64,000 nucleotides of DNA from a virus (taxonomy: Duplodnaviria > Caudoviricetes), in the IMG/VR virus record IMGVR_UViG_3300029955_000001; one strand, given 5' to 3'. Shown here one piece after another: positions 1 to 64,000 of this stretch. The translations under genes were made by a program, and so were the position numbers. The notes beneath the pieces are model-generated. The model was not told where the DNA came from. It saw only the letters and a list, made by a program, of their open reading frames with translations, and did no database searches. How positions within the stretch are numbered: position 1 is the first letter of the stretch; each line of letters begins with the position of its first letter.

Positions 1-363
1 ATAAATGCGTTCGCATAACTTATCCCTAAAATCATACTCAAATTCAATATTTGATTTATCCTCAGGATGTGTTTCGAAATGGTTATCATACACGGACCAC
101 ATTGCATTGCCGAGTAACTCTAAATGAGTATCAGAACCAAGGCGCTTACTATCACCCAATATATTGGTAAGATGGTGTTTTGGCAATAAAGGCGTATCTT
201 GAAATTCTCGATGAAAATCCCATGAATATGAACTATAGAGCGTTGCCCTATCATTCGTGCTAACGATTTCTCCGTTATCGAATACAAGATCAAAAGACCC
301 TGTTAATATATCCCATAACTCTTTAGTTGTATATTTAAGTAACGTTCTTGCTAATATTTTCAT
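1..363 (-). CDS. non-virion RNAP beta-prime C-terminal subunit (phiKZ gp74-like), 5-prime part, runs off window
   Basis: Manually translated open frame MKILARTLLKYTTKELWDILTG... from ATG at 363 to the window edge. It lies directly after the nvRNAP beta gene, as in phiKZ-like gene order. Confidence 0.7.
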   Translation of the reverse strand, partial: MKILARTLLKYTTKELWDILTGSFDLVFDNGEIVSTNDRATLYSSYSWDFHREFQDTPLLPKHHLTNILGDSKRLGSDTHLELLGNAMWSVYDNHFETHPEDKSNIEFEYDFRDKLCERIY

Positions 364-393
364 TAGTATTCCTTTTTAGTATACGTAAATTAC

Positions 394-2592
394 TTATTTA
401 TACACAACTGTCTGATCACTTTCCCAGTTAGGTTTATAGTCTCTGTATATAAAAGACAATCCGCTACATTCTGAAATATGTTTAACGAGACTTAACGGTC
501 TCGCTCCTCCTAATGGTAAAATCTTTCTATCCACTGCCGATTGAATTGCTGTGGGTTTATCAGCGCCTAGAATACTATACAAAATTTGTTTATGTGCAGC
601 TGGGTTATTATTACGATCGAGAATATCAGCAGTTACTTTTGCACCAGCGTATGCTGCATAGATACGAACCTCAGACTCTCCAAGAGCACGAATTGCTTGT
701 TGTCGAGATGGGTGTGAATGTTTATCAGTATTAGTAACTTGAGACAATACTCCAAAATGTTGTAGTTTGCCGCTGGACACAGCTGTCCAGTCGTCGCCTG
801 TTTTCTCTAACAAAATCATATACACACCGCCAATGCGTACATTATTTTTAGTAATAACGCGTTTACCAGAGTTACCAATGTAACTAACAGGGCCGTACAC
901 TGGTTTATAAAACATTTCTAATTGTTTAATTATTTCTTCTGATTCTGGTTCGTTTTCAGGAGGCATATATAGATAAATGCCATCTTTAATAACTGATGCT
1001 AGATGATCAATACGACGGCCTTTATACTCACCATCTGTAAACCAGACGTGCATCTTTGGAGAAACAATATTATAATAACCTAACAAATATTTCCAAGCGC
1101 GATCTATGGAATCTGGTTGGGTTAGTTCAAGTGTGCTTAGAACTGTTTTAATCTCATGCTCGGAATAACTATCCATTGTTGTCTTGTGTTTAGCGGTTGT
1201 AGCACCAAAGAACCAAGGATGAATATCATTCTTTATTTTAATAACAACATCACGACTAGCCGCATTAATGTATTGTTCGTATAATCGACCAATATTCATT
1301 CGTGAAATAGTAGAATTAGGGTCCATCACGATATCTGCCCGATTACCGTTTTCATCCACAGGCATTTCATCCGGTTCAGCGACGTGTACGATAACTCCCT
1401 TACCACCGTGACAATCTGACAATTTAAATCCTGTAATAGGTTCAATGTCATACTCGATTGTAAACTCCACACGCCAGTCATCTAATTGTGCTTGGCGATA
1501 CAGTTTAATAATCCGGTGTTGGTCGCTATCTACAACAGATAGTGCTTCAACTACCATTCTGTGAAATTCAGGAGTAATTCTTAAGTTCTCACGACGATCG
1601 CTTTTCAGGCGATTATATTCTTCTAGAATTTCCTTATAAAACTCACGTCTAGCTAAGTCGTATTTTTCTACTTGTGTTTCCATTCCAGCAACCGCGTCAG
1701 GTGCGCTATTTTGACTATCGTGTTGTACGCGAATATCAACAATTCTTCCACCAGCACCAGCTGCGTATGTGATTTTATCAAATACAAAATCTGGCTCCAT
1801 AAGAGCACTAACACTTTGTTCAACTACAGCTAATCCTTTATCGTAGCTTCGAAGACACATCAGAATACCGTCATATCGAACGCGATCCCCTATATCAGGG
1901 AATGGCTTGAAGTTATTTTCATCACCATATAAATTCAAAGCAAAACGTTTACTGCCCCATTCAACTGTACGTTGCTCATAAGTCTTAAAAGCAAATCTTC
2001 TTAATACATCTCTACTAATAATTACACCGTCTTCAGAAACCGCTGGATGCGTCATGAAAGCCATATTGCACTGAACACCGTACTTATAACCACCGTTTGG
2101 TGTAATTGACGGTGAGTCTAAAAACACGGTTCCTTCTGCTATAGCAGCACCTGGTCGAATATTTCTAATTCCATCTTGTTCTTTATATTCAAAACCAAAG
2201 TATTGGTGATAAGAACAATACTTAACCAAATTAAATATTCCTACTTCTTTAGTAATTGCGTTTTCATAAATTACTAAAGTTTGAGGATTCATCTTAATTG
2301 AATCAGCACCTATCTTGGGACGATAGCGTGGAATGATCTTGATGATTTCTCCATCGCACGGCATTCTCACTTTGAATGTATATTTACCAAACTCACGCTC
2401 AACACCAGTTTGACAACGACGCTCTGTAGCGCCATTGACAACAAGTGTCTGCGAAATATGACTCGAGAACATTTGCTCTCGACTACTAGAGTTGTGTTGC
2501 CTCCATGGGTTTAACCCATTAACTCCCTGAAACTCACGAAAAAGCTGATTAGAAACCTTAGTGCTCATAACGTTTTCCTTTATGTACAACAT
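394..2592 (-). CDS. non-virion RNAP beta subunit (phiKZ gp71-73-like), uninterrupted; likely start 2568
   Basis: Beta-subunit motifs SSSREQMFSSH, VSEDG, KLSDCHGGKG, ADIVMDP and SRMNIG. SD AAGGAA precedes MSTKV. Confidence 0.9.
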   Translation of the reverse strand: MLYIKENVMSTKVSNQLFREFQGVNGLNPWRQHNSSSREQMFSSHISQTLVVNGATERRCQTGVEREFGKYTFKVRMPCDGEIIKIIPRYRPKIGADSIKMNPQTLVIYENAITKEVGIFNLVKYCSYHQYFGFEYKEQDGIRNIRPGAAIAEGTVFLDSPSITPNGGYKYGVQCNMAFMTHPAVSEDGVIISRDVLRRFAFKTYEQRTVEWGSKRFALNLYGDENNFKPFPDIGDRVRYDGILMCLRSYDKGLAVVEQSVSALMEPDFVFDKITYAAGAGGRIVDIRVQHDSQNSAPDAVAGMETQVEKYDLARREFYKEILEEYNRLKSDRRENLRITPEFHRMVVEALSVVDSDQHRIIKLYRQAQLDDWRVEFTIEYDIEPITGFKLSDCHGGKGVIVHVAEPDEMPVDENGNRADIVMDPNSTISRMNIGRLYEQYINAASRDVVIKIKNDIHPWFFGATTAKHKTTMDSYSEHEIKTVLSTLELTQPDSIDRAWKYLLGYYNIVSPKMHVWFTDGEYKGRRIDHLASVIKDGIYLYMPPENEPESEEIIKQLEMFYKPVYGPVSYIGNSGKRVITKNNVRIGGVYMILLEKTGDDWTAVSSGKLQHFGVLSQVTNTDKHSHPSRQQAIRALGESEVRIYAAYAGAKVTADILDRNNNPAAHKQILYSILGADKPTAIQSAVDRKILPLGGARPLSLVKHISECSGLSFIYRDYKPNWESDQTVVYK

Positions 2593-2674
2593 TGTGTTAT
2601 AACAACTAAATATAAATTTGGAAAAATAATAATCTTTATTGTTATTTTTATGATGTCATTACCACACACTACAC

Positions 2675-2694
2675 TTTAGTGATATATCACTAAA
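2675..2694. promoter_or_regulatory. palindromic early-promoter-like site (TATATCAC on both strands)
   Basis: Perfect 20-bp palindrome TTTAGTGATATATCACTAAA between divergent genes. It resembles the phiKZ early motif TATATTAC. Confidence 0.6.
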
Positions 2695-2719
2695 AACCTT
2701 TACATTAAGAGGAACTCTT

Positions 2720-3058
2720 ATGAATGTCGATAGTTTAATGTTTAATCCTGGTAGTGATATTTACTACGATGCGGGGTTTAGAGTTGTTCTAGAAGATCAC
2801 ATGACGTTATTGAGAAATGATTCAACGACGCAAATCATTGACGTTGCTCCGATGGACGCGTATGTGTACGAGGCTGATCTATTTGGTCTTCTTTCTAAAT
2901 ATGGTGTTGCGCCATATTTACACTGGTTAACAATGCGAATGAACGATATGACTTCTCCGTCTGAGAATGATTTGAAATTAACACAGCTATTAATTCCTTA
3001 CCAAGGAAATATCGACAAGATACGACAGTCGTATACTAGTGTTAACAGAATTACATAA
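2720..3058 (+). CDS. conserved phage protein, possible LysM-like/T4 gp53-like baseplate wedge protein
   Basis: 112 aa with SD GAGGAA. The pattern YEADLFGLL..YG....LHWLTMRMN...SP...LLIP resembles LysM-type baseplate proteins (recall only). Confidence 0.4.
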   Translation: MNVDSLMFNPGSDIYYDAGFRVVLEDHMTLLRNDSTTQIIDVAPMDAYVYEADLFGLLSKYGVAPYLHWLTMRMNDMTSPSENDLKLTQLLIPYQGNIDKIRQSYTSVNRIT

Positions 3059-3254
3059 TGTTTAATTCTTTTGTATTTTTATGAAATGTTTCACATGGTA
3101 ATCCAGCATCTCTACATGCGTGGCAGCAAAACCAATACTCATGACCGTTTTCTGAATCTTCATCGCCGGTAAACACGTACTCACTATGACCTATTGTCCC
3201 GTGACAATACATGCAGTATAGTTCTAAATGACCAAATGTCATAAAAGCTTCCAC
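3051..3254 (-). CDS. small Cys-rich putative zinc-binding protein
   Basis: CxxC ... CCxxC ... C motifs in 67 aa. Confidence 0.55.
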   Translation of the reverse strand: MEAFMTFGHLELYCMYCHGTIGHSEYVFTGDEDSENGHEYWFCCHACRDAGLPCETFHKNTKELNIM

Positions 3255-3265
3255 ATAGAGAAAAA

Positions 3266-3308
3266 AATAGCATCTAATCTTTTTAAGGATTAGATGCTAT
3301 TTATGCCG
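3266..3308. terminator. intrinsic terminator hairpin flanked by TATGCCG
   Basis: Stem ATAGCATCTAATC/GATTAGATGCTAT with an A-run on the left (U-tail on the minus strand). Confidence 0.7.
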
Positions 3309-3314
3309 TATTAT

Positions 3315-4580
3315 TTAAATCGCACCAAACCCACCATTGCGATTGCCATAATTATTATTACCATAACTAGGAGTGTTATAGCTTCGTCCTATTCCTCCTA
3401 ATCCTGCTGGTCTATCCATACCACTACGTGATTGACCTTGCTGATACTGTTGTACGTTATTAGGAGCGCCAATAACAGAACGCAAACTAGGAACAGAACG
3501 AATCAGTGAGTTAAAATCCAAACCACCATTCTCAGTAACTACTGGCGCAGGCTGATACGATTGTGCTGGTTGGCCATATGTGTTTTGTGGTTGTTGTGGT
3601 GGAACTTGCCACGGTTGAAGATTAGTAACTGGAGCGCTTGCAAATGAAGCTGATGTCGCTGCTGCGGCAGGCGTGGTTCCTACGTCAGTATGTAGAGACT
3701 TACCTTCGTTACCAGCTTGCATTGGAACTAAGCGAATCTCTGATTTCATTACTTCGATATTATCGAATGTTTCTTCCCATTCAGATTCAAACAGAAGTTC
3801 ATCTGCCTCATCTTCCATTGTGTTTCTAAACAATTCAATGATAGTGTTCAGATTAGAAGCTACGACACCTACTGTCTTCATCAAAGCATCAAGATAAGGT
3901 GCAAGTTGAGATTCAGTACCAATGTTATATGTTTCAGGCTTATCAATACCTGGAAAAATATAATCCATCAAGCTTATTAAAGATTTAATATCTTTTACAC
4001 GCAGCTTTACACCATAACACTCATGCTCTGATTTTGTCAAGGCTTCGTATAGTGGAAAATGTACAATACCACATCGTGAGTAAGTAGTTCCTCTTACCTT
4101 ACCACCACGTTTTAGGAATATGGATACAAAATTCTTTTGAGAATTACCTTCGCCAAACTGTTCACATACTTTTGCGAAATCGTCAACCGTCTTCTTATCG
4201 ACATTTTTAACATGACTCAGAAAATCGGATTGTTCAGGCGTTAACGACGCATGCTCGTCTATGTGTGAAGCAATTTTTAACAAATGTAATGTTAGAACGT
4301 GCAACACGTAATTAATACGCACAACTAATGATGCTCGAAACTTTTCCAAGACATCAGATTCGCCTTTCAAAAGACTTTCCGATAACGGATGGAATATCAC
4401 GATATTCGACTTATTAGAATTAGCCAAATGTTCTTGAGTAGGAAGAACTAGTCGTTTTCCTTTTACAAGCAATGGTGTTTTTAATTCACCAATTACTTGA
4501 TTCACATAACCGTCGTCAGTAGCCACTAAGTCAGCTGTTTTAAGTATGGATTTATACAAATCCAATAATTTCATTGCCAT
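3315..4580 (-). CDS. conserved Chimalliviridae core protein (phiKZ gp70-like)
   Basis: 421 aa with a low-complexity Q/N/G tail. Position between the PicA-like gene and nvRNAP beta matches the phiKZ block. Confidence 0.6.
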   Translation of the reverse strand: MAMKLLDLYKSILKTADLVATDDGYVNQVIGELKTPLLVKGKRLVLPTQEHLANSNKSNIVIFHPLSESLLKGESDVLEKFRASLVVRINYVLHVLTLHLLKIASHIDEHASLTPEQSDFLSHVKNVDKKTVDDFAKVCEQFGEGNSQKNFVSIFLKRGGKVRGTTYSRCGIVHFPLYEALTKSEHECYGVKLRVKDIKSLISLMDYIFPGIDKPETYNIGTESQLAPYLDALMKTVGVVASNLNTIIELFRNTMEDEADELLFESEWEETFDNIEVMKSEIRLVPMQAGNEGKSLHTDVGTTPAAAATSASFASAPVTNLQPWQVPPQQPQNTYGQPAQSYQPAPVVTENGGLDFNSLIRSVPSLRSVIGAPNNVQQYQQGQSRSGMDRPAGLGGIGRSYNTPSYGNNNYGNRNGGFGAI

Positions 4581-4596
4581 TGCTTTTTTCCTTTAT

Positions 4597-6069
4597 TTAA
4601 ATAACACCGAAACCACCGGAACTTAACGGTGTTTGTATATTCCCATTAGTTTTACCAACGAAATCACAAGGAGATGGTCTAAGCTGACCCATCAGATCAC
4701 TGAAATCGTTTGCTACTGACATAGCTAGTCTACCATTTGTTGTTACTACCGGAACAGTCAATGCATCGCAAAACGATGGCGTGACGTAATCTACTTCTGG
4801 TTTACCGTCCAAAGATATTTTTATCCATGTTTCTCCAAGTAGATCAATTTGCATCGAGATTTCGAACGACATAGCACCCGAATACGATAGATCTTGCAAC
4901 ACTTGGAATTCCATGTTTCGTATGAAATTCTGCAAACCTAAACTATGATCAAATGTATCAGAAAACCCACGTACATCAAAAACGACTGTACTGATTACAC
5001 CGTCTCTAGATTGATTAGTAGTTTTAAACACAACCCAAGTAAGCCCTTGCTCCATAAGCAAACCTGGAATTGCTTGACTTAAAATAGTCGCGGCATGCGT
5101 AACGCCATCAGAACCACCCCAATCAGCAGTTAGTCCTGCTTGATGCACAGTTGCTTTCTCTGTAGCGGACATTAAAACAACGACTGCTAAATTATCAACA
5201 TTAGGGTCAAGTAACATTAATTCATTATAAGAGAAAGAGTCACCAATGGGTCTTCCTGTGACATTACTAATTGCAGATAACAAGGGGTCTTTAGAAGCAA
5301 TATTTTCTGCTGAATAATCTCTAGCGGCTTCTAGAATATCACCACGAGAAGAACCAATACTTGTATCAGCTTCGGAGCTTTTCCAACTCTGCAAGATATT
5401 AGCCATATAGCTTGCCGGTACACCATTTGCTCGCCTTGATTTCATGGCTAGATTATTAGCTATGGTTCTTTCGTCATACATAGTACAATCAGGCGGCAGC
5501 ATATCACGCGTCATTACTGAATAAATATCTTCAGGTCGCATCCGGTGATTTGATACCTGTTGACCAACACCGGACCAGCTATTATCGGTAATCACGTGAG
5601 AATTATCATTGATAGTCACGTGAGTTTGATTACCGAGAGGCGTCCTTTCGATTGTTCGTCTTTCCGTTATAATAGAGTTAACGGTAAAAATCATTCTCGG
5701 ATCAACGCTACCAGACAACGCAACACCATCGTAGTCGGTATAACCCATCACGTTTTCAATTATCTCACTACCGATACCTGGAAATACAGATCTTACTTCC
5801 ATACAGAAACGCATTCGTTTCTGTCCCCAGCCATTCGGAATGTCGATCGTTCCTTCTGGAGTAGGAGACGGACTAACAAAATGACTAGCAATACCAGCGA
5901 CTGTTGTTGGTCCAATTTTATTTGTATTAAATAATCGTTCTTGAATAATGTTCAATGTAGAGCGATCAAGATTTGTATTGTAAGGTCGTCGAAACTGTTG
6001 GTTATACGTGCCGGTTTCATGAATTATCAAACGTGTAATTGCAATTCCTGGTCTCTGATTAAAAGACAT
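4597..6069 (-). CDS. picA: phage nucleus protein import factor PicA/Imp1 (phiKZ gp69-like)
   Basis: 490 aa, immediately downstream of the gp68-like subunit in the conserved block. Assignment is by synteny and size. Confidence 0.65.
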   Translation of the reverse strand: MSFNQRPGIAITRLIIHETGTYNQQFRRPYNTNLDRSTLNIIQERLFNTNKIGPTTVAGIASHFVSPSPTPEGTIDIPNGWGQKRMRFCMEVRSVFPGIGSEIIENVMGYTDYDGVALSGSVDPRMIFTVNSIITERRTIERTPLGNQTHVTINDNSHVITDNSWSGVGQQVSNHRMRPEDIYSVMTRDMLPPDCTMYDERTIANNLAMKSRRANGVPASYMANILQSWKSSEADTSIGSSRGDILEAARDYSAENIASKDPLLSAISNVTGRPIGDSFSYNELMLLDPNVDNLAVVVLMSATEKATVHQAGLTADWGGSDGVTHAATILSQAIPGLLMEQGLTWVVFKTTNQSRDGVISTVVFDVRGFSDTFDHSLGLQNFIRNMEFQVLQDLSYSGAMSFEISMQIDLLGETWIKISLDGKPEVDYVTPSFCDALTVPVVTTNGRLAMSVANDFSDLMGQLRPSPCDFVGKTNGNIQTPLSSGGFGVI

Positions 6070-7725: not shown

Positions 7726-7766
7726 ATGTTTTTCCTTTATTTACACAACACATACTACTCACTTTA

Positions 7767-7774: not shown

Positions 7775-7814
7775 TGACTATATTTGTTTGTATTGCCATC
7801 ACCTTAAAAACTAC

Positions 7815-12750: not shown

Positions 12751-13045
12751 CTTTTGTCCATCTAATTCGTTAGATTAGATCGGTATGCTGAATACCTGCT
12801 TTATGTTTCCATAAAGAACTGACTATATCTTCTATTCGTAATGAATAGCCTTCCGTTTCGGAATCACTTGATTCCTACTCGCTTACGCGATAGTCGATGA
12901 ACCTTCTCCTGTACGGAGCTTGGCTGCTGATTGCCCAATCTCTATTCTTTTAAAACCTTGGCTTTGTCTTTCGACTCGCAGTGGTGAATAAAGCTCTCAG
13001 GGGTTTCCAGACAGTTAAAAAGGTTTTTAGACAGCAATTTTGTTT
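12751..13045 (-). mobile_element. group I intron (ORF-less, 295 nt), second intron of nvRNAP beta-prime N
   Basis: P AACTGTCTGGAAAC, Q AATCAGCAGCCAAG, R GTTCATCGACTA, S AAGATATAGTCAG. IGS GCTGTC pairs with exon GACGGT (U-G at the splice site). Ends in G. Confidence 0.9.
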
Positions 13046-13065
13046 ACCGTCAAAATCTGCATTAA
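13046..13065 (-). CDS. nvRNAP beta-prime N exon 2: 20-nt micro-exon encoding (F)NADFDG
   Basis: Sequence TT AAT GCA GAT TTT GAC GGT lies between an intron-terminal G and a U-G splice site. Splicing restores VVGFNADFDGDQ. Confidence 0.88.
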
Positions 13066-13492
13066 CTTATTGTCCAATTAGTTCGTTACACTAACCCGGT
13101 ATGTTGTACCTGCTATATATCTCTATATAGAACAGACTATATCTTCATCCTCAGCTTTATCTGTTTGGATGTCCACTGCTTCGGAGCCACTAGCTCCTAC
13201 TCCCATTACAGGATAGTCGTTGAACCTTCATCATTCTTAAATGGTTACCAATTTACATGGTAACGATTAGGCTCTTTCATTTAAGTTAAGATGCTTGGCT
13301 GCTGATTGTCTCTACCAGATTATTTTCAAACATTGACGTATGTGTTTTCACACTCCGCTTTAGTTAATCTGTCTAACAAGAGTTTCCAGCAATTCAATGG
13401 ATTTACATTTATCATTACTGATAAACTGGCCTGTATAAATATTATTTATAGTAATAGTATATTATTTTACTATAGAATTACTTATGTTCCTA
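13066..13492 (-). mobile_element. group I intron (ORF-less, 427 nt), first intron of nvRNAP beta-prime N
   Basis: P AATTGCTGGAAACTC, Q AATCAGCAGCCAAG, R GTTCAACGACTA, S AAGATATAGTCTG. IGS GGCC pairs with exon GGCT. Ends ...GGACAATAAG. Confidence 0.9.
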
Positions 13493-14717
13493 AGCCTACT
13501 ACTGACAAAATTGAAAGTGATACAGTGGGGATGTTCGGATCAGTTTTTATTTTCGTAACAAACATTGCTTGTGCTGACCCGCGTTCCAAACTCGGATTTC
13601 TTTGAAATATCACAGGTATGCCCTTGTATGGACATTCATTAATTAACAACTGAAACAGTTCATCTAACAGTGGATGATACTTTTGTGAATGTTCGTTTAG
13701 AAATGCTTTTGCACCATTGGGAGTAAATCCTCTACGCAATAGTTTATTCGTTAAATGAATACCTAATACGGATACTCCAATACCCCACGGGACATGCAAT
13801 TCATCATAATCGTGATTCGCTGTAAGCGATGAAATCACTGCTCTGAAACTAAAATGTGATCTAGTTCCAAATACATGTTTTCTAAATATTCCTTCTTTTT
13901 TAGCTAATGTAAAACGATATAAATCGTCATAAAAATCAGACAGTTGATAAATTGCTTTAATCGTCCTATTTTGTTTTGTTCTAACGGAATGATTTGCCAA
14001 TAAATTATCAATGCTACACATGGTGCGGATCGCGTCCACTGCTCCTGTTACAATTGGATCAACATATGTTCCTACGGTTGTTTCCTCAATAACCAATAGG
14101 GAACGATTAGGCAATGGCAGATAGTCAGAGAACACACAAGATCTTTGCTCTCTCAACAATTGTTCTAAAGGTTCTTCTACGCCTTTCTTTGCTCTGAATC
14201 CTTTTACATTAAATAACGATGCGATAATACTATCAAAGTTATCAACAAAATTATTATAACCTCGTTGGATTCCTAGCTCTTGTACAGTTTCCATAATTGC
14301 CGGAACTTTGACAGCTGGGTGATATGTACTGTCAGCTATCCATCGAATAATGTCGTATCCAGATTTTGAAAACTTTTCGGATAACATTGTTAACACAATT
14401 GGATTGATAAGTTTACTCACTCCTTCTGGCGCTCTAATCCAAACTAACGGCTCAAGATCTTGTTCTAAAGGTGCCTTTACGAATGTTCCGCATTGTTTAC
14501 ACTTCACACCAACGTTATGTTCTCCCTTTATTTCCTGGCATTCGCAAGTAGGCAAATTACTAAGAAGATCGGTATTGTATTTGGTGTAAATCATCGCATT
14601 AAAAGCTTCTTTATCTATTTCAGAACCTTCTGATACGTTGTTAATAATGATTGGTTCTTTAGTGCTATATTTTGAAAACAGTTCATCAAAGTTTACGAGT
14701 TCCAGTGAAATTCCTAT
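13493..14717 (-). CDS. nvRNAP beta-prime N subunit (gp55-like) exon 1, probable ATA start; spliced product about 490 aa
   Basis: Zn-ribbon CECQ..C..C and motifs RKHVFGTR, FSFRAVI and QRNPSL. The frame is open 41 codons upstream of the ATG at 14594, back to an ATA 6 nt after AGGAG. Confidence 0.88.
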
Positions 14718-14747
14718 GATGTTCTCCTGTGGATTTTAAATCAGAGG

Positions 14748-14799
14748 CAAAAAAGAGTGAGATTTTACTCTCACTCTTTTTGTTACTTACACTATGCCG
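14748..14799. terminator. terminator hairpin after chimallin, flanked by TATGCCG
   Basis: Stem AAAAAGAGTGAGA/TCTCACTCTTTTT. Confidence 0.65.
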
Positions 14800-52787: not shown

Positions 52788-52801
52788 ATACCTACCTTAA
52801 G

Positions 52802-54277
52802 TTATTTGAGTACTGTAACACGAAACTGTGTGCTGACCCAATACGCTATATATTCTAACACACTAACAGCAGCAGCTTCACGCACGTCAATTGTTGGATT
52901 TTCTTTCTTAATTCGTTCAATACCAGAAAGAATACGTTCCGCATCTGTGTGAAAGAAACGTGCATTACAAACGAGTCTTAAACACAAATCCCACAGGTCA
53001 TCTAATTCGCTTTCACGAGCAGCCTCTAACATTTTAGAAAAACGTCTTACAATGTTATCTCTGCTATCTGGCAAAGGTTCTTTTACTTCATCCAGGTCAC
53101 GTAGTTGACGATCAAACTCTTTTGTAAGAATGTGCTTCGTTCTAGTGAAACGACGATTGCTTTCTGTTACAGAAGTAATAGACGAATGGCGCGCCCATAA
53201 CGTTTTCAGTTCGATAGCTTTATCATTGATTGAAGAAACAGTACAAACTGGAACCCCGGTTAACGTGTTGCCAAACAAGATTTCGTTTTCACCACCGTCC
53301 TGAATCCATTTACTATATACGTCGCTATTGACAATTGTTTTAGTTCCTTGTACAGATTTAACAAGAATTTTATTCTTTGAAGAACTATCATGATCGTCAA
53401 TAGCACGACATAACCGAGAACCGGCTTGATTGCGATATTCGACAATCAAATTATTAAATGCATTTAGGCCCATTGTTGTTTCTGGCAAAGGCTTATCAGC
53501 TAATGCGTTAGCTAATAGATAGATAGCTAATGCATTATCAACGCCTTCAGCAGGACACTCTGTAAATGTGTTAAAACGAAGTTGTTGTTTCTCACTTAAC
53601 TCCGCTTGTTTAATTTGGAACACATGAGTCCAAATACGAATGAAGAAACTATCTCCTTTTACAGATGCCCATTCATCAATCGCGTCATTAAGATTCTTAG
53701 TTCCTGTCTTCATCAGCTTCAACATTTCTTCCACTGTAATGAGCGGTAACTTCATTGCTAGCGGTGGTGTGTTGAATGGTTCTTCTTCAAAACGACGTAC
53801 TGATTTTTCTAGTGCACTGTTTAACAACGGAGCAGGAGGAGAGTAAGTGATTACCTCCATACCCAATAAAGAAGATGGCGTAGTCAGACTTAACTCACGA
53901 TGAACTCGTGATACCAGATCAGCAACAGCCGGAGCAACTACCGTTTTTGCAAACAAGATATATCGCTTAACAGCTTCTGTAACTAACAGTGTTGTATTGT
54001 CCAATACTTCGTCATGAGCAGATGTTCCAAATGCTTCATTCTTAGCATTGGCCATGTATGTAATCATCTTAACATTAGGACTGCCCACACCTTCTACTTT
54101 TACGCCAGGTACACCAGACGTTTTTTCTGTACTAGAAAAAGCAATACGCGCATCAGAACGAGTCGCTTTCACTAGCGTGTCCAGTGGTGTGCCTTCAATT
54201 GGAGTAAGAACTATGTTGTGTTCATCCAAAATCTGAGTGAGAGTTAACGCACTATCAAGAGCTTCTACGTTCAACAT
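52802..54277 (-). CDS. conserved virion protein (gp177-like)
   Basis: 491 aa, synteny. Confidence 0.6.
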   Translation of the reverse strand: MLNVEALDSALTLTQILDEHNIVLTPIEGTPLDTLVKATRSDARIAFSSTEKTSGVPGVKVEGVGSPNVKMITYMANAKNEAFGTSAHDEVLDNTTLLVTEAVKRYILFAKTVVAPAVADLVSRVHRELSLTTPSSLLGMEVITYSPPAPLLNSALEKSVRRFEEEPFNTPPLAMKLPLITVEEMLKLMKTGTKNLNDAIDEWASVKGDSFFIRIWTHVFQIKQAELSEKQQLRFNTFTECPAEGVDNALAIYLLANALADKPLPETTMGLNAFNNLIVEYRNQAGSRLCRAIDDHDSSSKNKILVKSVQGTKTIVNSDVYSKWIQDGGENEILFGNTLTGVPVCTVSSINDKAIELKTLWARHSSITSVTESNRRFTRTKHILTKEFDRQLRDLDEVKEPLPDSRDNIVRRFSKMLEAARESELDDLWDLCLRLVCNARFFHTDAERILSGIERIKKENPTIDVREAAAVSVLEYIAYWVSTQFRVTVLK

Positions 54278-54278
54278 A

Positions 54279-54482
54279 TTAAATTTCTCCCAAATAAGGC
54301 GTTACTTTTCGTTGAAAACAAGTTTGTGCTAGGTTGTAAATAATAGAACGGGATAACGGAGATCCGTTTAAAGTGTCCGCTACTTCGTTACCCAATACAC
54401 CCTGCGCCACGCTAGCTACTAACTCATTAGCGTTAGCTAGTGTTACTAAAGTTCTTTCTGAATCTTGATTATTTAAACCCAT
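54279..54482 (-). CDS. small hypothetical protein
   Basis: 67 aa, SD AGGA. Confidence 0.55.
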   Translation of the reverse strand: MGLNNQDSERTLVTLANANELVASVAQGVLGNEVADTLNGSPLSRSIIYNLAQTCFQRKVTPYLGEI

Positions 54483-54517
54483 GATGTTTTCCTATGAAAA
54501 TAACTATTACGTCGCAT

Positions 54518-54730
54518 TTAATTTTGACCTTTGTATATCTTACACGCCTTAGCGCTAATGACGTTAAGTAAAGTGCATGTTGTTCCAATAATATCTGGAC
54601 TACACACAATACGATTTTGTATACTGAGAGCACCGAATATGGCATCTATTTTAACACCGGATTCGGTAGTGATGTCGTCATTCAGAATTGTGCCAAAAAC
54701 TGTTTTCATTTGATTACAGAACACGCCTTT
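54518..54730 (-). CDS. virion RNAP beta subunit (gp178-like) exon 4
   Basis: Begins AAA GGC GTG TTC (KGVFCNQMKTV) after terminal G 54731, completing the GD-K motif. Confidence 0.85.
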   Translation of the reverse strand, partial: KGVFCNQMKTVFGTILNDDITTESGVKIDAIFGALSIQNRIVCSPDIIGTTCTLLNVISAKACKIYKGQN

Positions 54731-55083
54731 CCTTTTGTCCAATTAGTTCGTTAGACTAACCCGGTGTGCACTGACACCCGCCTACATTTTCATGTAGGAG
54801 CAGATCATATCTTCATCCTCTATTTCTAGTTAGGATGTTTCCCATTTCTGTCCACTTGGACTCTACACCGTGGTAAGCGGTTGATCGTTGAACCTTTTCC
54901 ATTTTACAGGAACTTGGCTGCTAAAGAGGATCTTAGATCCTACGGTTGCCCATTGTAATATCCGTTTCGTTTTTAGACCATGGCTTTGTCTTTCGACTCG
55001 CAGTGGTGAAACAGCTTTAGGGGGTTCCAGCAGTTAGAGAAAATTCATTTGAACATTACTAATCAAATGGACTATATTTTTTA
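54731..55083 (-). mobile_element. group I intron (ORF-less, 353 nt) in vRNAP beta
   Basis: P AACTGCTGGAAC, R GTTCAACGATCA and S AAGATATGATCTG (covaried P7). Ends TGGACAAAAGG. Confidence 0.88.
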
Positions 55084-55998
55084 ATCACCTACACCAGCAG
55101 GAACTTCACCTGTGATGTATACTTTAATTGCTAACGTATCTAACGATAACGGATCACCTTCGATTCTAAAACCTTCATCTACGGAACCAGTATAGGCTGT
55201 TTTACCAGCCGCTCGATTACGCTTAGAGAATTCACGATCGTAAGTAGTTACAATACTACGCAATGAATCCGACATGTCTTCAATCATTCCGTTGTAAAAT
55301 ACCTCAATCCGTTCTATTTTACCAATCGTTTTAGCTTGTGGTGTTTGAGCACTTAATATACGTAATGTATCTAATGATTCTTCATCAAAGAGACCTGATT
55401 CAGCTGTAATAGCATCTTCGATTACACATAAAATACTCTCAGATTCCACCTTATCACCAGGTTTGACTAACCGACGTATACTTTGATCAAAATTAACAAC
55501 AATGTATTTTACCTTTGTTGTTGACGTAGATAACAACTTAGCTGCTCTTCTAGAAATAGCAGAGGAATCGTCTAGTGTGGCGTTTGATTCCATTAGCGCC
55601 GTCTTTACCATAATGCCAGATTTCCAAACAACATCGTTTGGATTGAAAAGATCTTTTTCAAAGAAACCTGTATTATAACAAATAAGCTCACTTGTTTTAA
55701 ATACCTGACCAGGGATCATATCTGTTTTCACAGAATGAGGGATCACTAAACCAGCAGCATTACCAAAACGTCTACCTAATTCATATCCAGTTGGTTTTTC
55801 ATCTCCGTCATATTGAACAATAATACCGTGTTCTGAAACAGAAATTACTTTACCAGGTTTCTTTGCGGTCATAGCAAACAGATCGCTTGTCCTGTGAGGT
55901 AACACTTGCTCGTAACCAGTACGAATTTGCGGTTGCGCATAACCTATACAAGACACGACGTGACTAGCTTGAACCGATGCAAAATTTACCCGTTTGGG
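55084..55998 (-). CDS. virion RNAP beta subunit exon 3
   Basis: PKRVNFASVQASH...TLDDSS...PAGVGD; in frame with the 55081-55956 ORF. Confidence 0.88.
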
Positions 55999-57434
55999 CC
56001 TTTTGTCCAGTGAGGTCGCTTTACTCTCCTCACCCGGTGTGTTAAGACACCCGCCTACACTTTCATGTAGGAGCAGACTATATCTTCATCCTCTTAGAAT
56101 AAGTAGGATGTCTTCTATTTCCCCAGGGCTTCCTAGGTACTGGCTGATAAGGCCATAGTCGTTGAACGTTCCTCGTATCGTTTCCGATCATTAGAGGCTT
56201 CGCTGCGGATTACCCAATCTTTATCTTTGTTACCGTACCCAGGTAATTATTCTGGCCGCTAGTCAGTTTCCTATACTAGTTTGGTAGATAAAGCTCTAAG
56301 GGACTTCCCGCCAATTAAAAAGAATTTCATTGAATATTACTATTCAATGAGACCTAGATTGTTTATTAAAATTAATACGGATAATATCCGTACCTATAAC
56401 CATCAGAAAAAACTTTTTCACCATTCGATTTAAGACGATAATTAAGTGCAGTTGTTGTCAACCTGTGCCACTTCGCGCACTCTACAGCGGAAGGATATAT
56501 TTTAAACTCACCATTTTCATTATTTACTACTTTTACGCACCGACTACATGAAAAATTATTTAACTCCAAATATGGATCAATAACTTCTCTCCATGGTGTT
56601 AAGTCATGCGCCCAGCGTATTTGAATAAAATTTGGTAAGACAGGTTGATCTTCGCGACGTATCCATTGAGAAAGCGTCGGTAACGCAATGTCCAAGTCTT
56701 TAGCTAACTCACTCATTTGGTTATATGTTGCTATTTCACCAGTAAGTACGTTACGAACACTAATCGCTTTGGAAGTGCTATTCTGCAAAAGAGCTTGCTC
56801 AACTGAAATAGGAATTATCCATGGTTCATTAGAGTGTGATCCGCGATACTGTTTTCGCTCAGGAAACACTCTTTCTTCACCAACAAAGATACGATAATTA
56901 ATTGCATCTTTCGACATACCCATAAAACGAGCACACTCAATAATACTTGGAAATTTTCTAATATTCCCAGTATCTATATCTCTAACCGAAATAGGAATAC
57001 ATTTTGGTGTAATTCCCATTGCACCAGCATGTTCCGCATTTCCTTGATAAGTAGTCCATTCTAAATTATCTAACCAATCATCACCTTTAACGGTGTTAAT
57101 GTGATTGACAACAAGTGAGGTTATGTCTACGCCGGGATGTTTAAAAACATAACACAGTAAACGATGTCTTCCCCATGTTAGGGTATAGTTATCATCACCA
57201 AATATCCGGTAATTTACATAGCCATCAGGATTTCTACTACCTTCCAAATTAATGCGTGTAGTTTTATTGATTACTCGACCATCAATAGAAATTACATAGT
57301 TCGAGTATCCTGGTATTTCATAATAACCAGGAAAATCAATACTTTCTTTTAATTCATGGTTATACATTTAACACTCCTTAATATTCAACATATTATAGTG
57401 TGTTAATTTTATTTTAATTCAAAACAATCTGTTA
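55999..57434 (-). mobile_element. group I intron (1436 nt) with HNH endonuclease in vRNAP beta
   Basis: P AATTGGCGGGAA, Q AATCCGCAGCGAAG, R GTTCAACGACTA and S AAGATATAGTCTG. Long-range P1 AGATTGTTT/AAACAATCT encloses the ORF. Confidence 0.9.
56372..57367 (-). CDS. intron-encoded HNH homing endonuclease (NUMOD4-HNH-NUMOD1 type)
   Basis: EIPGYSNYVIS..GRV, HRL, VNHINT.KGDD.LDNLEW and C-terminal repeats with S..ECA. Confidence 0.88.
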   Translation of the reverse strand: MYNHELKESIDFPGYYEIPGYSNYVISIDGRVINKTTRINLEGSRNPDGYVNYRIFGDDNYTLTWGRHRLLCYVFKHPGVDITSLVVNHINTVKGDDWLDNLEWTTYQGNAEHAGAMGITPKCIPISVRDIDTGNIRKFPSIIECARFMGMSKDAINYRIFVGEERVFPERKQYRGSHSNEPWIIPISVEQALLQNSTSKAISVRNVLTGEIATYNQMSELAKDLDIALPTLSQWIRREDQPVLPNFIQIRWAHDLTPWREVIDPYLELNNFSCSRCVKVVNNENGEFKIYPSAVECAKWHRLTTTALNYRLKSNGEKVFSDGYRYGYYPY

Positions 57435-59078
57435 ATCATCTCTATCTGAAGCTGGTGAAAGTAAAGCTGTGGTGGATATTAACGCAGTAGCTCCAGTTTC
57501 CCCAATCTTGTATCGGCGAGACATTCCACGTAATGAAGTGAACTGTGGGTCAGCTGATAAGTACGTATTAACCGCTACGTCCTTACTATCCGAAGTAGCT
57601 TCAGATATTGTACCCATATCGTTAGCGTGATAGATACGTGCGTTCTTAGTCATACTGCGACTATTACGACCACCAGTACCAGCAAATGTTACTGCTTCCA
57701 TTTCTTTCAGATTCTGAACTGGATTTATATCACTAACTAATGCTACGGATGGATCTTGCATAATGTTTTTCCATACAGCATAGGGATTCAAATCAATTGG
57801 TACTTTTGATTTTCCTATACGACCATTATGTCCACGAATAGCCCTTACAATTTCACCATAGACAGCCCCCGCCATACGCTCGTAACCTTTAATACGCATG
57901 TACTGCGAATCAAGTTCATCAGGATGTTTATCATTTAACAACATCTGACAGCTACGAATTAATAGATCTCTGAAATTTAACGGCTCTTTCATTTCTATTA
58001 ACAAATCACGTGTAATGGGATCAATATACATCTGGTATAACAAATCAATTTCACGAACATAACGAGCGCTAGCGCCGTTGTTCTCTAAGACATTTAAATA
58101 AATACCACGTTTGTCGAATTCGTGAACACTATACTGACGAATAACTTTATGGTATTCATTAAAACCAGCCAGTATCATGGATGCTTCTTTATTGTCTTTT
58201 TGGAACACTAAAGTCTCATCACTAAATACAATAGGATATTCATTTGGCATTAAGTTAACACGAGTCCCCGCAGGTACTCTACGTGGGTTTACTTTCAATA
58301 ACTTAATTAGTCTATCCAAACCAATTTCATACCCAAGAATAATACCAATTGGAATGGTGCGACCTAACACCTTTGCCTCAGCAAAATCAATTGGTTCTTT
58401 ATCTATATCAAGGCCGAGCAATTCCTCAATCGTGCCGAATGGTTGAAGAATACCGTCTGCTGTGATGTAGATAAAATCATTCTTATCTAGAACTAATAAC
58501 GCATCGCTTTCTCGTTGAACGCCATCTGAATTAACAGCGTGCCCAATAATGATTGATCCATCTTTTTCATAGATCGCTATTGATTCTCTGCCGTAAAGAG
58601 CTTCGCGTCTCGTGTGATCAAACTGTAAAGCAAATGTATACGTGTAGGCTTCATCGACGCGAATTTGCTGTGGATCAAATGCTACTTTCTGCTTAGGAAC
58701 AGCATTATTTTGAGACATCACAGACTGATGTTTTATTTCAGCCCATTTACTGATATCTTCTTCTGGCTCTTTTTCTTTAAAGGCAATGTTACTTGGCGTT
58801 GGTCGTTTTACATCTGGACGTTCGGCTGTTAATGTAAAACCACGGAACCCTAGCGCTAACGTGCTGTAAAGTTTAGGACAATCAAACAAATTATCAAACA
58901 CTGTACCAGGGTGCATACTTGTTACTGAGTCATCTGTTGGATCTAGTCCTTTAGCGACAATCTGATTGCGAAGCCATGTACCAGAGTCATTAACGCGTTT
59001 CTCGCTACGACTAACAAACACTGTACCGTAGTAACTAGTAAGCTTTACCGTATCTGGCGATGTCTTACGAATTGGAAG
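57435..59078 (-). CDS. virion RNAP beta subunit exon 2
   Basis: LPIRK...GTGGR...HANDMGTISEAT...SDRDD; starts after terminal G 59079. Confidence 0.88.
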
Positions 59079-60399
59079 CATTCCAATTAAATGGACCATA
59101 TCATCATCCTCAACATTACTTGTTAGGATGCCTACCATTTCGGGACTATTAATCCCTACTCTACTTGCTTTAATTACTAAATTAATAGCAACCATCTGAT
59201 TTTACACAGATGTTATTATGCGATGATTTGCAATAGCTTTCGATGGCCTCTGAACACACTCCGTATATTAAAATAAATACTTAGGAGCTTCGTTGCGGAT
59301 TATGTCTTTTAATAACGTTTTTACTATTCTCAACACTTCCATTACTGGGTTGAGTATTACAGTGTGTTTCCACCTGTAAGTAGTAGTTATTAAAATTATA
59401 GACGTTTTCCCGCAGTTAGATAGGTTTTGTTGTACCGTATTACTACGATACGGGGACCGGTAAATGAACGTACAAAAATAAATTAAATTTAGAATAAGAC
59501 GTGGAAATTATTAATATTTTTTTCCAGTTCTTTTACAATGTCTTTAACGAGGACACCACTTGGGAGCTTAAACGTATCGTAAACTTCAAGGGCATTTCTA
59601 AAGACTTGTAATTTTCCATCAACAACAAACCAATAACGATAAATTTGTTTAAGTCTCATTACCAGTTCTTTTTCTACAGAATCACTTTTGAGATGTAGAT
59701 AAGTTAAAACGATTAAATACTCTTTTCGAGCTTTAATAAAAAGCTTTTTTAATTCATCGTTTTCTTTTGTTCTCAAATAAACTTCTTCGCCACCAAAAAT
59801 ATCGATAGGCCTATAATGTTGCAAACCATTAAATTCGATATGAATGTTTAACTTAGGTAAAAAGAAATCACTTCTTAGGAGAGATGGTGATAATCTAAAT
59901 TCTCTAATATGTTCAATATTAAAGTTTTTTAAACATAACTCGACAGCTTTCTCACCTTTTGATTCCATACAAATACGACAACCGGCTTTATTCGAAAGAT
60001 GACCGTTTGGTTTCTGCCAAAACGATCCATGCGTAGGACAAATTATTTCTACATGTTCTTTATTGCCGTTATACTTAACCTTACTATAATCGTATTTATT
60101 ACCATGAATTAACTTAGCGTCTTTTATAAATTCTTCTGTAGTTTTCTTATGTTCTTCTATAAAACATTTTTTACACCCACACCCAGCTAAATGTGAACAC
60201 GCTTTCTGATAAAATAACCCGTGTCTTAGACACGTAATAGTTAACTTATCATGAGCTAGAAATATTTCTGGTAGAAGATCATAGTTGTTTGTTTATAAAA
60301 CGGATGGTCTTTTATTTCTTAATTTATTTAAAAATGTTTCTTTGTTCATTGTAGCCTTTTTATCATACAGTAATAAAACCTATATAACAATGGCTTTCA
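59079..60399 (-). mobile_element. group I intron (1321 nt) with degenerate endonuclease in vRNAP beta
   Basis: P AACTGCGGGAAA, Q AATCCGCAAC, R GTTCAGAGGCCAT and S ATGATATGGTCCA. IGS GTCCCC pairs with exon GGGGAT. Confidence 0.88.
59489..60349 (-). pseudogene. intron-encoded Vsr/EDxHD-like endonuclease with Zn-binding repeats, premature TAA at codon 19
   Basis: ATG at 60349 and TAA at 60295-60293. The frame then continues through C..HG...C..C repeats and D.FLP...IEFNGLQHY. Confidence 0.7.
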
Positions 60400-62205
60400 A
60401 TCCCCACGTTGTTTACGTAAAGAGTACTTGATACCATTCACCGAATAAGTACCGTCTTCTTTTATTACGGGTAACTTAAACTCCATCGTAGATGTTGTCC
60501 CGTCTACCGGAGTAATTCTAACCTTATGTTTGTCATACGAACCTAAAACACTATCTTCACGTTCTACCTCATAGCCCGTTACTGCGATCCCGGCCTTCTG
60601 AACATTCATCACCATACCAGCCACATCTCGAGGCATGATATCAGTAACGTAGAGACGATCAAAATCATGTAAACTCGATTTCAACATACTCTTATCATGG
60701 ATAGTTTGTTTGTCGGCAATCGTAGTTACTGATTCGATAGCTAGTTGTTTTGGCTTAATATCAATAAACTTATCTAACGTCGTCTTGCCATCTGGCGAAA
60801 CGATTGTTCTATAAGACTTTGATAACGTTTCATAACGTCGATACTCTGCAGCTGATAAACGACCAATATCTGCTAAACGATCACACACCTTCATTACACC
60901 ATCTTCTAGTGTTACAGGTTCATCAATAATGATATCTTCATGATGGCTCGTTGTGCTGTCGTTATGCGATCCGACATGTGCTCTAGAAATAGCTTCTAGT
61001 TCTGCTAAGTCCTCATCTAACCGAGCATCTAATTCTGCACTATGCGTTATATCGGCACCAGTATCGTCAGCGTGATCAGAATGTAGTGGATCGTAAGTTA
61101 CTTCACTAGGTGGCGGGTTCTCTGTTTGCTTCAATTCTACAGCACCTGTAGCGCTGTTAATAACAGGTAATGATGTTGCTTGTGTAATAACAGGCGAAGC
61201 ATTAGGGGCTGTTTGTACAGATACGCTATTATCGGAAGAATCAGTAGCGGTAACCGTAATATCAGATTTAATATCAACAGGAGTATTTTCTTTATCCCGC
61301 TGAACTTCATCTGTAACATCCGGCGAAGCAACAGTGCGCGCGTGAAACAAAGCCATCATCAAACGTAAGAAACGTTTCTGAATTTGAGACGGCGTTAAGC
61401 CCTTTATATTTGCTTCTGGATCTTCTTCCAATTCTTCTTCAGTAGCAATGCGCCATGAATTTAATTTACCCAGGTTAATGGCAAACCAGCGATTAGATTC
61501 AATAAATATTAAATTAACCTTATTCATTTCACCATCAGGCACGTGTGATAAAACAGAAGTTTTTCTATTATCACCTAACCATTTATAAATCTCTAAAATC
61601 ATTAAGCTATCAGGATTATTAAAGATCTTTACGACATGTTGCGATATACCAGATGATCCTAACCGAAGATCTGGTAAACTAGGTAATACAGTAGGCAATC
61701 TACAAGTAATGAAATTTTCTCTATCAGAAGTCGCCGTTACTACCGCTATATTTTTCCACACAGCTGATTGTGTATTCCACCATTTATAATACTCACTATA
61801 AAACGAACGTGGGTAACGATACATTTCTTGAAGAAATCCGTAATTATAAATAACTAGTGTATTCGGATCACGAGTGCTTATTTCAAGTGTTTTCATAAAA
61901 CGAAAACGACGATTTTTACTATGGAAATGTCTTATTAGCCCCATTGGATTAATAGCGTGCCTTCTTGGCATTCCCTTCTCATCTCCTAATTCAGTAATAT
62001 GACCAACGTTAATTGGTTTTGAAATATTACGAAACAAGAAGTCGTCAGGATCGGGGCCCATCACTATTGGGCTAGTTGATACATAGTGTAAAATAGATCT
62101 CTTTGGTAAATCTAACAGATCCATTTTTGGACATGGTGGATTCATCAAGTGCTCTGCTATTCTTACGCCATATTTTCTATACCAAATGTCATAAAAAAGA
62201 TTCAT
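60400..62205 (-). CDS. virion RNAP beta subunit exon 1 (spliced product about 1525 aa)
   Basis: Ends YSVNGIKYSLRKQRGD, which joins LPIRK. Size matches phiKZ gp178-type subunits. Confidence 0.85.
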
Positions 62206-62210
62206 TTTAA

Positions 62211-62379
62211 TTATCCATCTGTTAGATTATAAAGAACAAAAGCAACTGTTGCTACGTCTATGCTGGAAGTAAACCTACCATCTGTTCCAACATAAGCTCT
62301 CTTTTTAGTAAGGTACTCGTCTACTTCTTTAACTGCTTCGTCAGAGTACGTTGCGTTACTGCTGACAGTATCGCCATCA
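62211..62379 (-). CDS. virion RNAP beta-prime catalytic subunit (gp180-like), last exon
   Basis: T GAT GGC GAT ACT... gives (F)DGDTVSSNATYSDEAV...TDG-stop, following terminal G 62380. Confidence 0.82.
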
Positions 62380-64000
62380 CTTACATATTACTTATATTCA
62401 TAGTAATATGTTACTTTACATCACTGTAAAGAATAGACTATATCTTTATCTTTTACTTTCATTGTAAGAAAGCAGTCAGATATCTCCCGTTTCGACGGAT
62501 CTCCCGATCGGTCTACTTCCTTGCGGAATAGTCGTTGAGCCTTATCCATGCCCTTGTGAGGTTTAGGATCTTGGTTGCTATAGGGATTCTTAGAATCCAC
62601 GGTTGCCTCACAGTTTATTAATAAAACAATATTAATAAAAGCAGTACTGAACGCGATTAACTTTCAGTATAATGTAATATTCTTAAGCATTCACGCTCTG
62701 GTTTTCACCACACGTTGTAGCTATTACACTTTAGAGGGTTTCCAGCAATTAAAGAGATTTATTTTCATAGGCATTTCGGCCTAAGGACTCTGATTGATAT
62801 TAAATTCTTTTTACTAAATATTGGTTTTTTATAAGTGACTTATTACTAATAGCGTGCATAATCATTCCATTTCCTCTATTAAGAAAAACAGATGCTTTTG
62901 CATAACTTGTAAATAATTGTTCAGTATTTGTTTTTGTATCAGTGACTATTACACCAGTTGTTTTTCCAACCGGATTAGCTAAGTATACAGTTATTTCATT
63001 TTCTGTATACACAGGCCATGGCGTTTCATCATTTTCCATTTTAAAATCATAACCTTTTAATGGTCGGTGATTTCTTTCATCTTTTAAATAAGAATGTATA
63101 GTCATAACTGCGCAGTTTGTTGCTCTGCTGCAATCAGCCACACTGGAATATGTATTTATAACGCCAGTTACAATATTGCGTGTTTTAACTGAAGTAGGTA
63201 CTCCAATATGAAGTTTACGATCAATTGTTTTTTCTTGGTCAGTAACTTCTCGCCACGACGTCGCGTCTGTTTTAAGTTTGAATTGTAAAAATCCAGGATA
63301 CACTGGTTGATTTTTAGCTTTTACACGATACTTAATTGTATCTTTGTTTAAGTTTAAATAATCTGCGCAGTCTACGTATCCTCTAAATTCTTTTACTTCA
63401 CCAGTAACAACATTACGCATTAGAACTGTGGAGTCTATATTTTGTAGACCATTTTTCCATGCGTGAATGTTATTGTCTTTTCTTGTGGACCATTCTAAAT
63501 TTTCTAATCTATCATCACCGGGTATTCCGTTAATGTGGTTTGTTACAAGTGAATCAACATTAACGGTGTAAGGAAGCCATGCAAGACAAATTAATCTATG
63601 TCTTCCTATTGATGTATCGTTACCAACATCTGGAGTGATTTTATATCTAGCATACCCTGTATCGAAAAAATATTTCAATACTCTACCACTGGTCGCGTTA
63701 ATAAGATTGCCAAATTTATTAATAGCGTAATTACTAAAGCCTGGTATGTATGCGTAATCTGAAAATTTATAATGAAGCATTCCGCCTTCTGGGAATTTCC
63801 ACACTAGGTTACTTGGGTGACAGTTCTTTTTATTACCATCGACAAACATTACATCTATTCGGTGCCAGTGATGAAAAGGAACTGCAATTCTTTTAAAAGT
63901 TAATGCAACTAATACTGCAACTTTATAGTTTTGATACCCGTTCCACAAACACGCATAAACTAATAAATTTCCATCAGCATCTACGGTGTGGGGAATAATA
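62380..64000 (-). mobile_element. group I intron in the DFDGD motif of vRNAP beta-prime, 5-prime end outside window
   Basis: P AATTGCTGGAAAC, R GCTCAACGACTA and S AAGATATAGTCT. IGS GAGTC is preceded by ATCA, a P10 partner for exon TGAT. Confidence 0.85.
62800..64000 (-). CDS. intron-encoded HNH homing endonuclease with two HNH-like units (partial, open to window edge)
   Basis: FVDGNKKNCHPSNLVW and NHINGIPGDDRLENLEW plus NUMOD1-like repeats. The frame is open beyond 63948. Confidence 0.85.
   Translation of the reverse strand, partial: IIPHTVDADGNLLVYACLWNGYQNYKVAVLVALTFKRIAVPFHHWHRIDVMFVDGNKKNCHPSNLVWKFPEGGMLHYKFSDYAYIPGFSNYAINKFGNLINATSGRVLKYFFDTGYARYKITPDVGNDTSIGRHRLICLAWLPYTVNVDSLVTNHINGIPGDDRLENLEWSTRKDNNIHAWKNGLQNIDSTVLMRNVVTGEVKEFRGYVDCADYLNLNKDTIKYRVKAKNQPVYPGFLQFKLKTDATSWREVTDQEKTIDRKLHIGVPTSVKTRNIVTGVINTYSSVADCSRATNCAVMTIHSYLKDERNHRPLKGYDFKMENDETPWPVYTENEITVYLANPVGKTTGVIVTDTKTNTEQLFTSYAKASVFLNRGNGMIMHAISNKSLIKNQYLVKRI

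Follow-up and report, generated by a model that had tools for sequence, protein, structure and literature searches.

Introns in the RNA polymerase (RNAP) genes of phage phiKZ have been known since 2002 and 2014, according to the works cited in PMC11512511, while in phage PhiPA3, as described in 2024, the gene for the virion RNAP beta subunit holds the gp210 intron, which encodes an HNH nicking endonuclease that nicks the phiKZ RNAP gene and was found to give a competitive advantage (PMC11620839). In other phage groups, Twort orf142 holds three introns (as given by ref. 45 of PMC11620839) and the Jug jumbo phages have a mean of 18.5 introns per genome (PMC12880540). Here we analyzed positions 1-64000 of IMGVR_UViG_3300029955_000001 (Duplodnaviria; Caudoviricetes), hereafter the window, to which all intron counts for this phage refer. 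Group I intron matches were found in three of its RNAP subunit genes: two in the non-virion (nv) beta' gene, three in the virion (v) beta gene and one in the v beta' gene, with every one in an RNAP gene. We consider it very probable that these are six genuine phiKZ-type group I introns that homed into the most conserved stretches of the three genes.

The search used the Rfam covariance model RF00028, whose gathering score cut-off is 50 bits. Six matches reached this score, with 51.9-92.5 bits and E values of 2.6e-10 to 1.9e-22; every one lies on the minus strand and spans the full model (positions 1-253):

12799-13055, 13113-13447, 54781-55096, 56054-56380, 59068-59477 and 62414-62811, minus strand: the six RF00028 matches

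A permissive Rfam scan (E<=1) of the whole window revealed no seventh intron, and the other large genes tested (DNA polymerase, terminase and a further RNAP subunit gene) were uninterrupted:

394-2592, minus strand: further RNAP subunit gene, matched over its full length by PHROG 3295, no intron

Thus not all polymerase genes in the window carry introns, and on the same two grounds (nothing more at E<=1, large genes whole) additional introns or broken genes elsewhere in the window were rejected. A sequence-only reading of this DNA had claimed six group I introns, all in RNAP genes, with no other gene interrupted; the covariance-model search and the alignment of the spliced proteins to intron-less orthologues (below) both bore it out. 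Introns and their endonuclease genes together occupy ~5.45 kilobases of the window. Of the window outside the introns, ~15% codes for RNAP, and the chance of six random insertions all landing in it was near 1e-5 by our arithmetic. The observation is real and lies far from chance expectation.

At the boundaries, the 5' exon ended in U in all five visible cases and the intron ended in G in all six. P1 helices of 8+2, 6+2, 5+2, 4+1 and 3+2 base pairs (bp) were found for the five visible introns, the last two being weak; the first four have U-G at the splice site. The P7 strands are GACUA and UAGUC in four introns, GAUCA and UGAUC in v beta intron 3 (a double compensatory change), and GGCCA and UGGUC in v beta intron 1; P7 is unpaired in the Rfam model, yet compensatory changes preserve its complementarity in these two introns. 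The exons had no Pfam match; the spliced proteins were collinear with intron-less orthologues and ungapped at the junctions, with every join in frame and the motifs restored. Moreover, a stop codon stands directly 3' of the 5' splice site at three of the five visible sites and after three codons at a fourth, and unspliced RNA would therefore yield truncated proteins. That both polymerases would depend on splicing is a sound inference, because of these stops and because one exon, of 20 nucleotides (nt), could not be translated alone.

We also noted a shared 3' element, ..TGGACAA(A/T)AAG(G), at the end of four introns (54731-54745, 55999-56012, 12751-12762 and 13066-13077, minus strand); in two of the four, TG^GAC AAA AGG (the caret marks a point of insertion or splicing throughout) would form an in-frame alternative 3' splice site, adding two residues.

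The N part of nv beta' is divided by two introns without an open reading frame (ORF), which bracket the 20-nt micro-exon:

13493..14717, minus strand: nv beta' exon 1, ending ..GTA GTA GGC T; tblastn to FLC9 gp381 with 60% identity; PHROG 2987 at 2e-127
13066..13492, minus strand: group I intron A, 427 nt, no ORF, ending AAG; Rfam 89.2 bits
13046..13065, minus strand: 20-nt micro-exon TTAATGCAGATTTTGACGGT, encoding (F)NADFDG, read directly from the sequence
12751..13045, minus strand: group I intron B, 295 nt, no ORF, ending AAAAG; Rfam 83.4 bits
12523..12750, minus strand: nv beta' exon 3, from DQLNATLS.. through the stop; tblastn to FLC9 gp381 residues 417-491

In tblastn, residues 1-414 and 417-491 of the uninterrupted FLC9 gp381 flanked the two introns. 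The nucleotide junctions read ..GTA GTA GGC T^A^TT AAT GCA GAT TTT GAC GGT^B^GAT CAG TTA.., where the A and B between carets stand for the introns. The spliced micro-exon product, VVGFNADFDGDQL, aligned with E. coli beta' 458-NADFDGD-464, and in a 6-orthologue alignment the longer spliced product VVGFNADFDGDQLN ran ungapped across the micro-exon against five orthologues. In intron A the guide GGCC lies ~61 nt into the intron, and P1 pairs GGCU with GGCC, with the U-G pair at the splice site; in intron B a P1 of 6+2 bp pairs GACGGU with GCUGUC, using the last six bases of the micro-exon. The micro-exon doubles as 3' exon for intron A and P1 substrate for intron B, a natural test of two ribozymes sharing one tiny exon. 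An end of exon 1 at 13484 (..GLGTF) was tried and rejected, as it adds three residues absent from the five orthologues and gives no U-G pair in P1. The F^NADFDG junction sits upstream of the N codon by two bases, and therefore this site flanks DFDGD rather than lying inside the motif.

At the 5' end of this gene, homology to the N-termini of FLC9, RP31 and phiKZ begins at 14717 with the codon ATA (region 14594-14735, minus strand). AGGAG stands 7 nt upstream of the ATA, the first in-frame ATG, GTG or TTG is 41 codons downstream, and the first ATG is at 14594; a non-canonical ATA start at 14717 is probable.

The v beta gene is divided into four exons by three introns:

60400..62205, minus strand: v beta exon 1, MNLFYD.. 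to RKQRGD; tblastn to FLC9 gp40 residues 2-653; PHROG 3148 positions 2-574
59079..60399, minus strand: v beta intron 1, 1321 nt, with core 59068-59477 (Rfam 55 bits) and ORF 60349-59489
57435..59078, minus strand: v beta exon 2, LPIRK.. to SDRDD; tblastn; PHROG 3148 up to position 1050
55999..57434, minus strand: v beta intron 2 (1436 nt), HNH ORF placed ahead of core 56054-56380; Rfam 92.5 bits
55084..55998, minus strand: v beta exon 3, PKRVNF.. to AGVGD; tblastn with 64% identity; PHROG 3148 positions 1051-1354
54731..55083, minus strand: v beta intron 3, 353 nt, no ORF; Rfam 56.6 bits
54518..54730, minus strand: v beta exon 4, from KGVFCNQMK.. through the stop; tblastn to FLC9 gp40 residues 1447-1513; E. 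coli beta from K1065

FLC9 gp40, a single ORF of 1514 amino acids (aa), matched in tblastn as four ordered blocks with the joins RKQRGD^LPIRK, SDRDD^PKRVNF and AGVGD^KGVF, and the PHROG 3148 profile was matched in the same exon order; a phmmer search of exon 2 against PDB sequences gave nothing useful. In the DNA the three joins read GAT^TGA...ATG^CTT, GAT^TAA...AGG^CCC and GAT^TAA...AGG^AAA, and the spliced protein (1525 aa) was ungapped at all three junctions against eight intron-less orthologues. In this 9-sequence alignment, the local conservation at the three sites was at the 98.9th, 93.4th and 95.8th percentile. The P1 of intron 1 (8+2 bp) pairs GUGGGGAU with GUCCCCGU across the endonuclease ORF, so that the ORF sits in the P1 loop. 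The P1 of intron 3 is weak, and its splice register therefore rests on the orthologue alignment; the register GGT^...TTG^GAC AAA AGG was also tried and is in frame, but was rejected as it inserts two residues in the invariant GDKGVF loop.

The profile built from the nine v beta proteins aligned with E. coli beta as three collinear blocks, which placed DD^PKR at D674-D675^A676 and GD^K at D1064^K1065. RGD^LP lies within 147-SQLHRSPG-154; here the aligned block stops at 145, and the register was extended via the shared NG-x7-Q..P spacing. The DD^PKR and GD^K positions belong to the active-centre region of RNAP, whereas RGD^LP lies in a channel segment that is universally conserved but is no catalytic motif.

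For v beta', only the 3' side of the interruption lies in the window:

62380..64000, minus strand: 3' part of the v beta' intron, with an HNH ORF and core 62414-62811; Rfam 51.9 bits
62211..62379, minus strand: v beta' 3' exon, T followed by DGDTVSSN.. to the stop; tblastn to FLC9 gp41 residues 486-538 with 75% identity

The 3' splice site AAG^T GAT GGC GAT is the only option that is G-terminated and stop-free, and the 5' exon is therefore expected to stop after the second base of the F codon. The guide GAGUCC (62790-62785) likewise predicts a 5' exon that would end in ..GGACUU and encode (A)-D-F.

Set against these results, the junctions given by the sequence-only reading hold for the five that are fully visible (F^NADFDG, DG^D, RGD^LP, DD^PKR and GD^K), and in part for DF^DGD, at its 3' side and by the matching guide. 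Its further claims, that all sites are in catalytic motifs and that three of them are at DFDGD, need correction at RGD^LP, a conserved segment by the profile alignment, and at F^NADFDG. The load it called unusually heavy is so for chimalliviruses but is not unprecedented, as the phiKZ introns are all in RNAP genes and the Jug phages carry many more. Whole-genome Rfam counts for a reference set of eight chimalliviruses were 0, 0, 0, 0, 0, 2, 3 and 3 intron matches per genome, versus six in the 64-kilobase window. The phages compared, and their sites, were:

phiKZ: three Rfam introns, all in RNAP genes, at N^ADFDGD, NAD^FDGD and HGGN^KGV
Goslar: three Rfam matches, one above the cut-off, at D^FDGD (v beta') and within the F codon (nv beta')
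HPP-Temi: two Rfam introns, DD^ site
HHBS47_1, CF8 and PhiPA3: DD^ site (PhiPA3 from PMC11620839)
FLC9, RP31, Eowyn, RAY and pTD1: no Rfam intron in each

The element type is thus already known from phiKZ and its relatives, and DD^ is a recurrent site, shared by the window with PhiPA3, HPP-Temi, HHBS47_1 and CF8; the implied TT^T position is shared with Goslar nv beta'. The sites that the window adds to those occupied in chimallivirus RNAP genes are RGD^LP and GD^K in v beta and the two that bracket NADFDG in nv beta'. Of ~60 v beta genes sampled, none had an insertion at RGD^LP or GD^K and none had more than one small insertion. In the few genomes examined, which do not make an exhaustive survey, no intron was seen upstream of N, at DG^D, at RGD^LP or at GD^K.

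Each affected gene has a described counterpart. As in phiKZ gene 55 (gp56/gp56.1), the nv beta' introns are in the N part of the gene, beside chimallin and in the same motif. The phiKZ gene has one intron, at N^ADFDGD, with an HNH gene ahead of the ribozyme core (89% identical over 75 nt to the core of intron B), whereas the window gene is split by a pair of ORF-less introns: the first lies 5 nt upstream of where the phiKZ intron sits, the second is at DG^D, and the 20-nt exon is left between them. In v beta', as in phiKZ gp180/gp179 and Goslar gp205/gp206, an HNH intron lies near the 3' end of the gene (N part), and the three phages share the layout of 5' exon, HNH gene, core, short 3' exon and v beta start; phiKZ and Goslar split D^FDGD in phase 0, while the window 3' exon (T GAT GGC) implies TT^T, 2 nt downstream. 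The DD^ intron, like that of PhiPA3 gp210, directly follows the two conserved aspartates (E. coli D674-D675) and carries an HNH gene, but the window v beta has two more introns than PhiPA3 v beta, at RGD^LP and GD^K. Twort and Jug likewise combine several group I introns in one essential gene, at conserved sites and in part with endonuclease genes; they differ from the window, with its two multisubunit RNAPs, in belonging to other phage groups and in their targets (terL, nrdD, DNA polymerase).

Across phiKZ, Goslar and the window phage, at least five distinct intron positions fall within ~25 nt around the NADFDGD codons, which makes this stretch a hotspot for independent invasions. The window intron cores are mosaic relatives of Pseudomonas phage introns, including those of N4-like phages. 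The core of intron B shared 83-89% identity over 70-128 nt with introns from three Pseudomonas phages, although the phages themselves are related only remotely. These introns occupy other sites or genes, namely the single-subunit RNAP gene of the N4-like PAP02/Pa_WF01, v beta DD^ in HPP-Temi and gp55 in phiKZ. It seems that intron modules travel from site to site and from one phage family to another.

In three of the six introns an endonuclease ORF separates the 5' splice site from the guide, which puts it in the P1 loop, as in phiKZ; the other three are ORF-less:

62800 to >64000 (5' end open), minus strand: HNH ORF of the v beta' intron; Pfam HNH_3 4.6e-11 and NUMOD1 2.8e-9
56372-57367, minus strand: HNH ORF of the DD^ intron; NUMOD1 1.8e-6, PHROG 59 at 1.6e-33, HNH_3 below the cut-off at 17.5 bits
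59489-60349, minus strand: endonuclease ORF of the RGD^ intron; PHROG 559/9084/7140 (phage endonucleases)

Both HNH ORFs are homologous to phiKZ gp179, gp56 and gp72, the v beta' one with 36% identity to gp179 (E 6.5e-52). These two genes look intact, and their products are putative active endonucleases. The ORF of the RGD^ intron has an in-frame TAA at 60295-60293, 18 codons past the ATG and followed by 267 open codons; it had no Pfam match and no useful PDB match (phmmer), with hits to PHROG endonuclease families only. This gene may be decaying, or the stop may be a sequencing error. In the DD^ intron, the 3' codons of the HNH gene (..GYRYGYYPY-stop, 56372-56400, minus strand) overlap the candidate guide GGUUAU as well as the beginning of the ribozyme core.

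On the reading that we favor, homed phiKZ-type introns, each pre-mRNA would self-splice by guanosine attack after the U-G pair of P1 and exon ligation after the terminal G, which would restore NADFDGD in each beta' subunit and, in virion beta, RGD-LP, DD-PKR and GD-K. The endonucleases would cut or nick intron-less alleles of co-infecting relatives, so that the introns could spread. Conserved codons would be good targets because the recognition sequence is common to relatives and imprecise intron loss is lethal. If so, one phage can need six ribozyme reactions for its two polymerases. For annotation, gene callers would report nine or more fragments instead of three genes.

The ribozyme-model matches, U and G boundaries, P1 pairings, collinear spliced proteins and endonuclease domains on which this reading builds are all present in the window. 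Several points weigh against it: i) splicing is inferred from sequence evidence, as are endonuclease activity and homing; ii) three introns score just 52-57 bits, barely over the cut-off of 50; iii) P1 is short in two introns, with 4+1 bp in intron A and 3+2 bp in v beta intron 3; iv) for v beta intron 3, the Rfam P1 register puts the splice site 3 nt upstream and there is an in-frame alternative register with two additional aa; v) the 5' exon and 5' splice site of v beta' are beyond base 64000; and vi) the in-frame stop in one endonuclease gene means that the intron concerned may no longer be mobile.

The low scores and the two weak P1 helices, together with the absence of an identical contig from the public collections searched, would also fit the view that one or more introns are dead remnants or arose when the metagenome was mis-assembled, so that the gene concerned would be a pseudogene in the assembly. 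We regard this as very improbable: every exon join is in frame and restores an invariant motif exactly, compensatory changes preserve P7, and both polymerases are essential core genes of Chimalliviridae, so that a dead intron would be lethal. Another view dispenses with RNA splicing and lets the genes in pieces produce separate polypeptides that assemble into a polymerase. Chimallivirus RNAP subunits are indeed naturally split into several polypeptides (PMC7598289), and v beta intron 1 ends in a G that completes an in-frame ATG just before LPIRK. Against this stand the full ribozyme core at every break, the orthologues that are single uninterrupted ORFs across all junctions, and the NADFDG exon, which has no start codon and cannot be a separate protein; translation of the fragments without splicing is thereby ruled out for the micro-exon, and as a general account we find it scarcely credible.

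Two further views accept the introns and differ on their role. In one, they are more than selfish passengers, in that their endonucleases serve as weapons against the RNAP genes of co-infecting relatives and were selected as a multi-target arsenal. The DD^ HNH intron shares its site with the PhiPA3 gp210 intron, whose competitive advantage was demonstrated (PMC11620839); moreover, two HNH genes seem intact, and both polymerase systems are targeted. Half of the introns lack an endonuclease gene and one gene is prematurely stopped, however, which is the usual decay of selfish homing elements, and sequence cannot tell weapon from parasite; we consider the arsenal possible but unlikely. In the other, to which we give little credence, the phage nucleus, by separating transcription from translation, would ease a constraint usual for such introns in bacteria, the disturbance of ribozyme folding by ribosomes, so that introns could accumulate in polymerase genes, and the surviving endonucleases, acting jointly at several sites, would be a weapon against co-infecting relatives that knocks out both of their RNAPs.

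The phage itself is a new nucleus-forming jumbo phage (Chimalliviridae), because it encodes chimallin along with tail sheath, terminase, DNA polymerase and RNAP subunits, because the window proteins are at most 62% identical to those of isolate phages (Burkholderia phage FLC9 being the nearest), and because Megablast of window positions 52800-64000 against isolate phages found no close genome:

14810-16672: chimallin; Pfam PF25677 at 7.6e-41; PHROG 'nuclear shell protein'

The nv and v labels of the RNAP genes were assigned by synteny with phiKZ (chimallin gp54 beside gp55; gp180-179-178-177), and nv beta' adjoins chimallin in the window as gp55 adjoins gp54. A related-locus search of viral contigs returned no relative of the window, and an exact-pattern scan of viral and metagenome contigs for the window end had no match. 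ARAGORN found zero transfer RNA genes in the window. Between chimallin and nv beta' (14740-14790, minus strand), a strong hairpin followed by a T-run, GAGTGAGA..TCTCACTC TTTTTT, resembles an intrinsic-type terminator.

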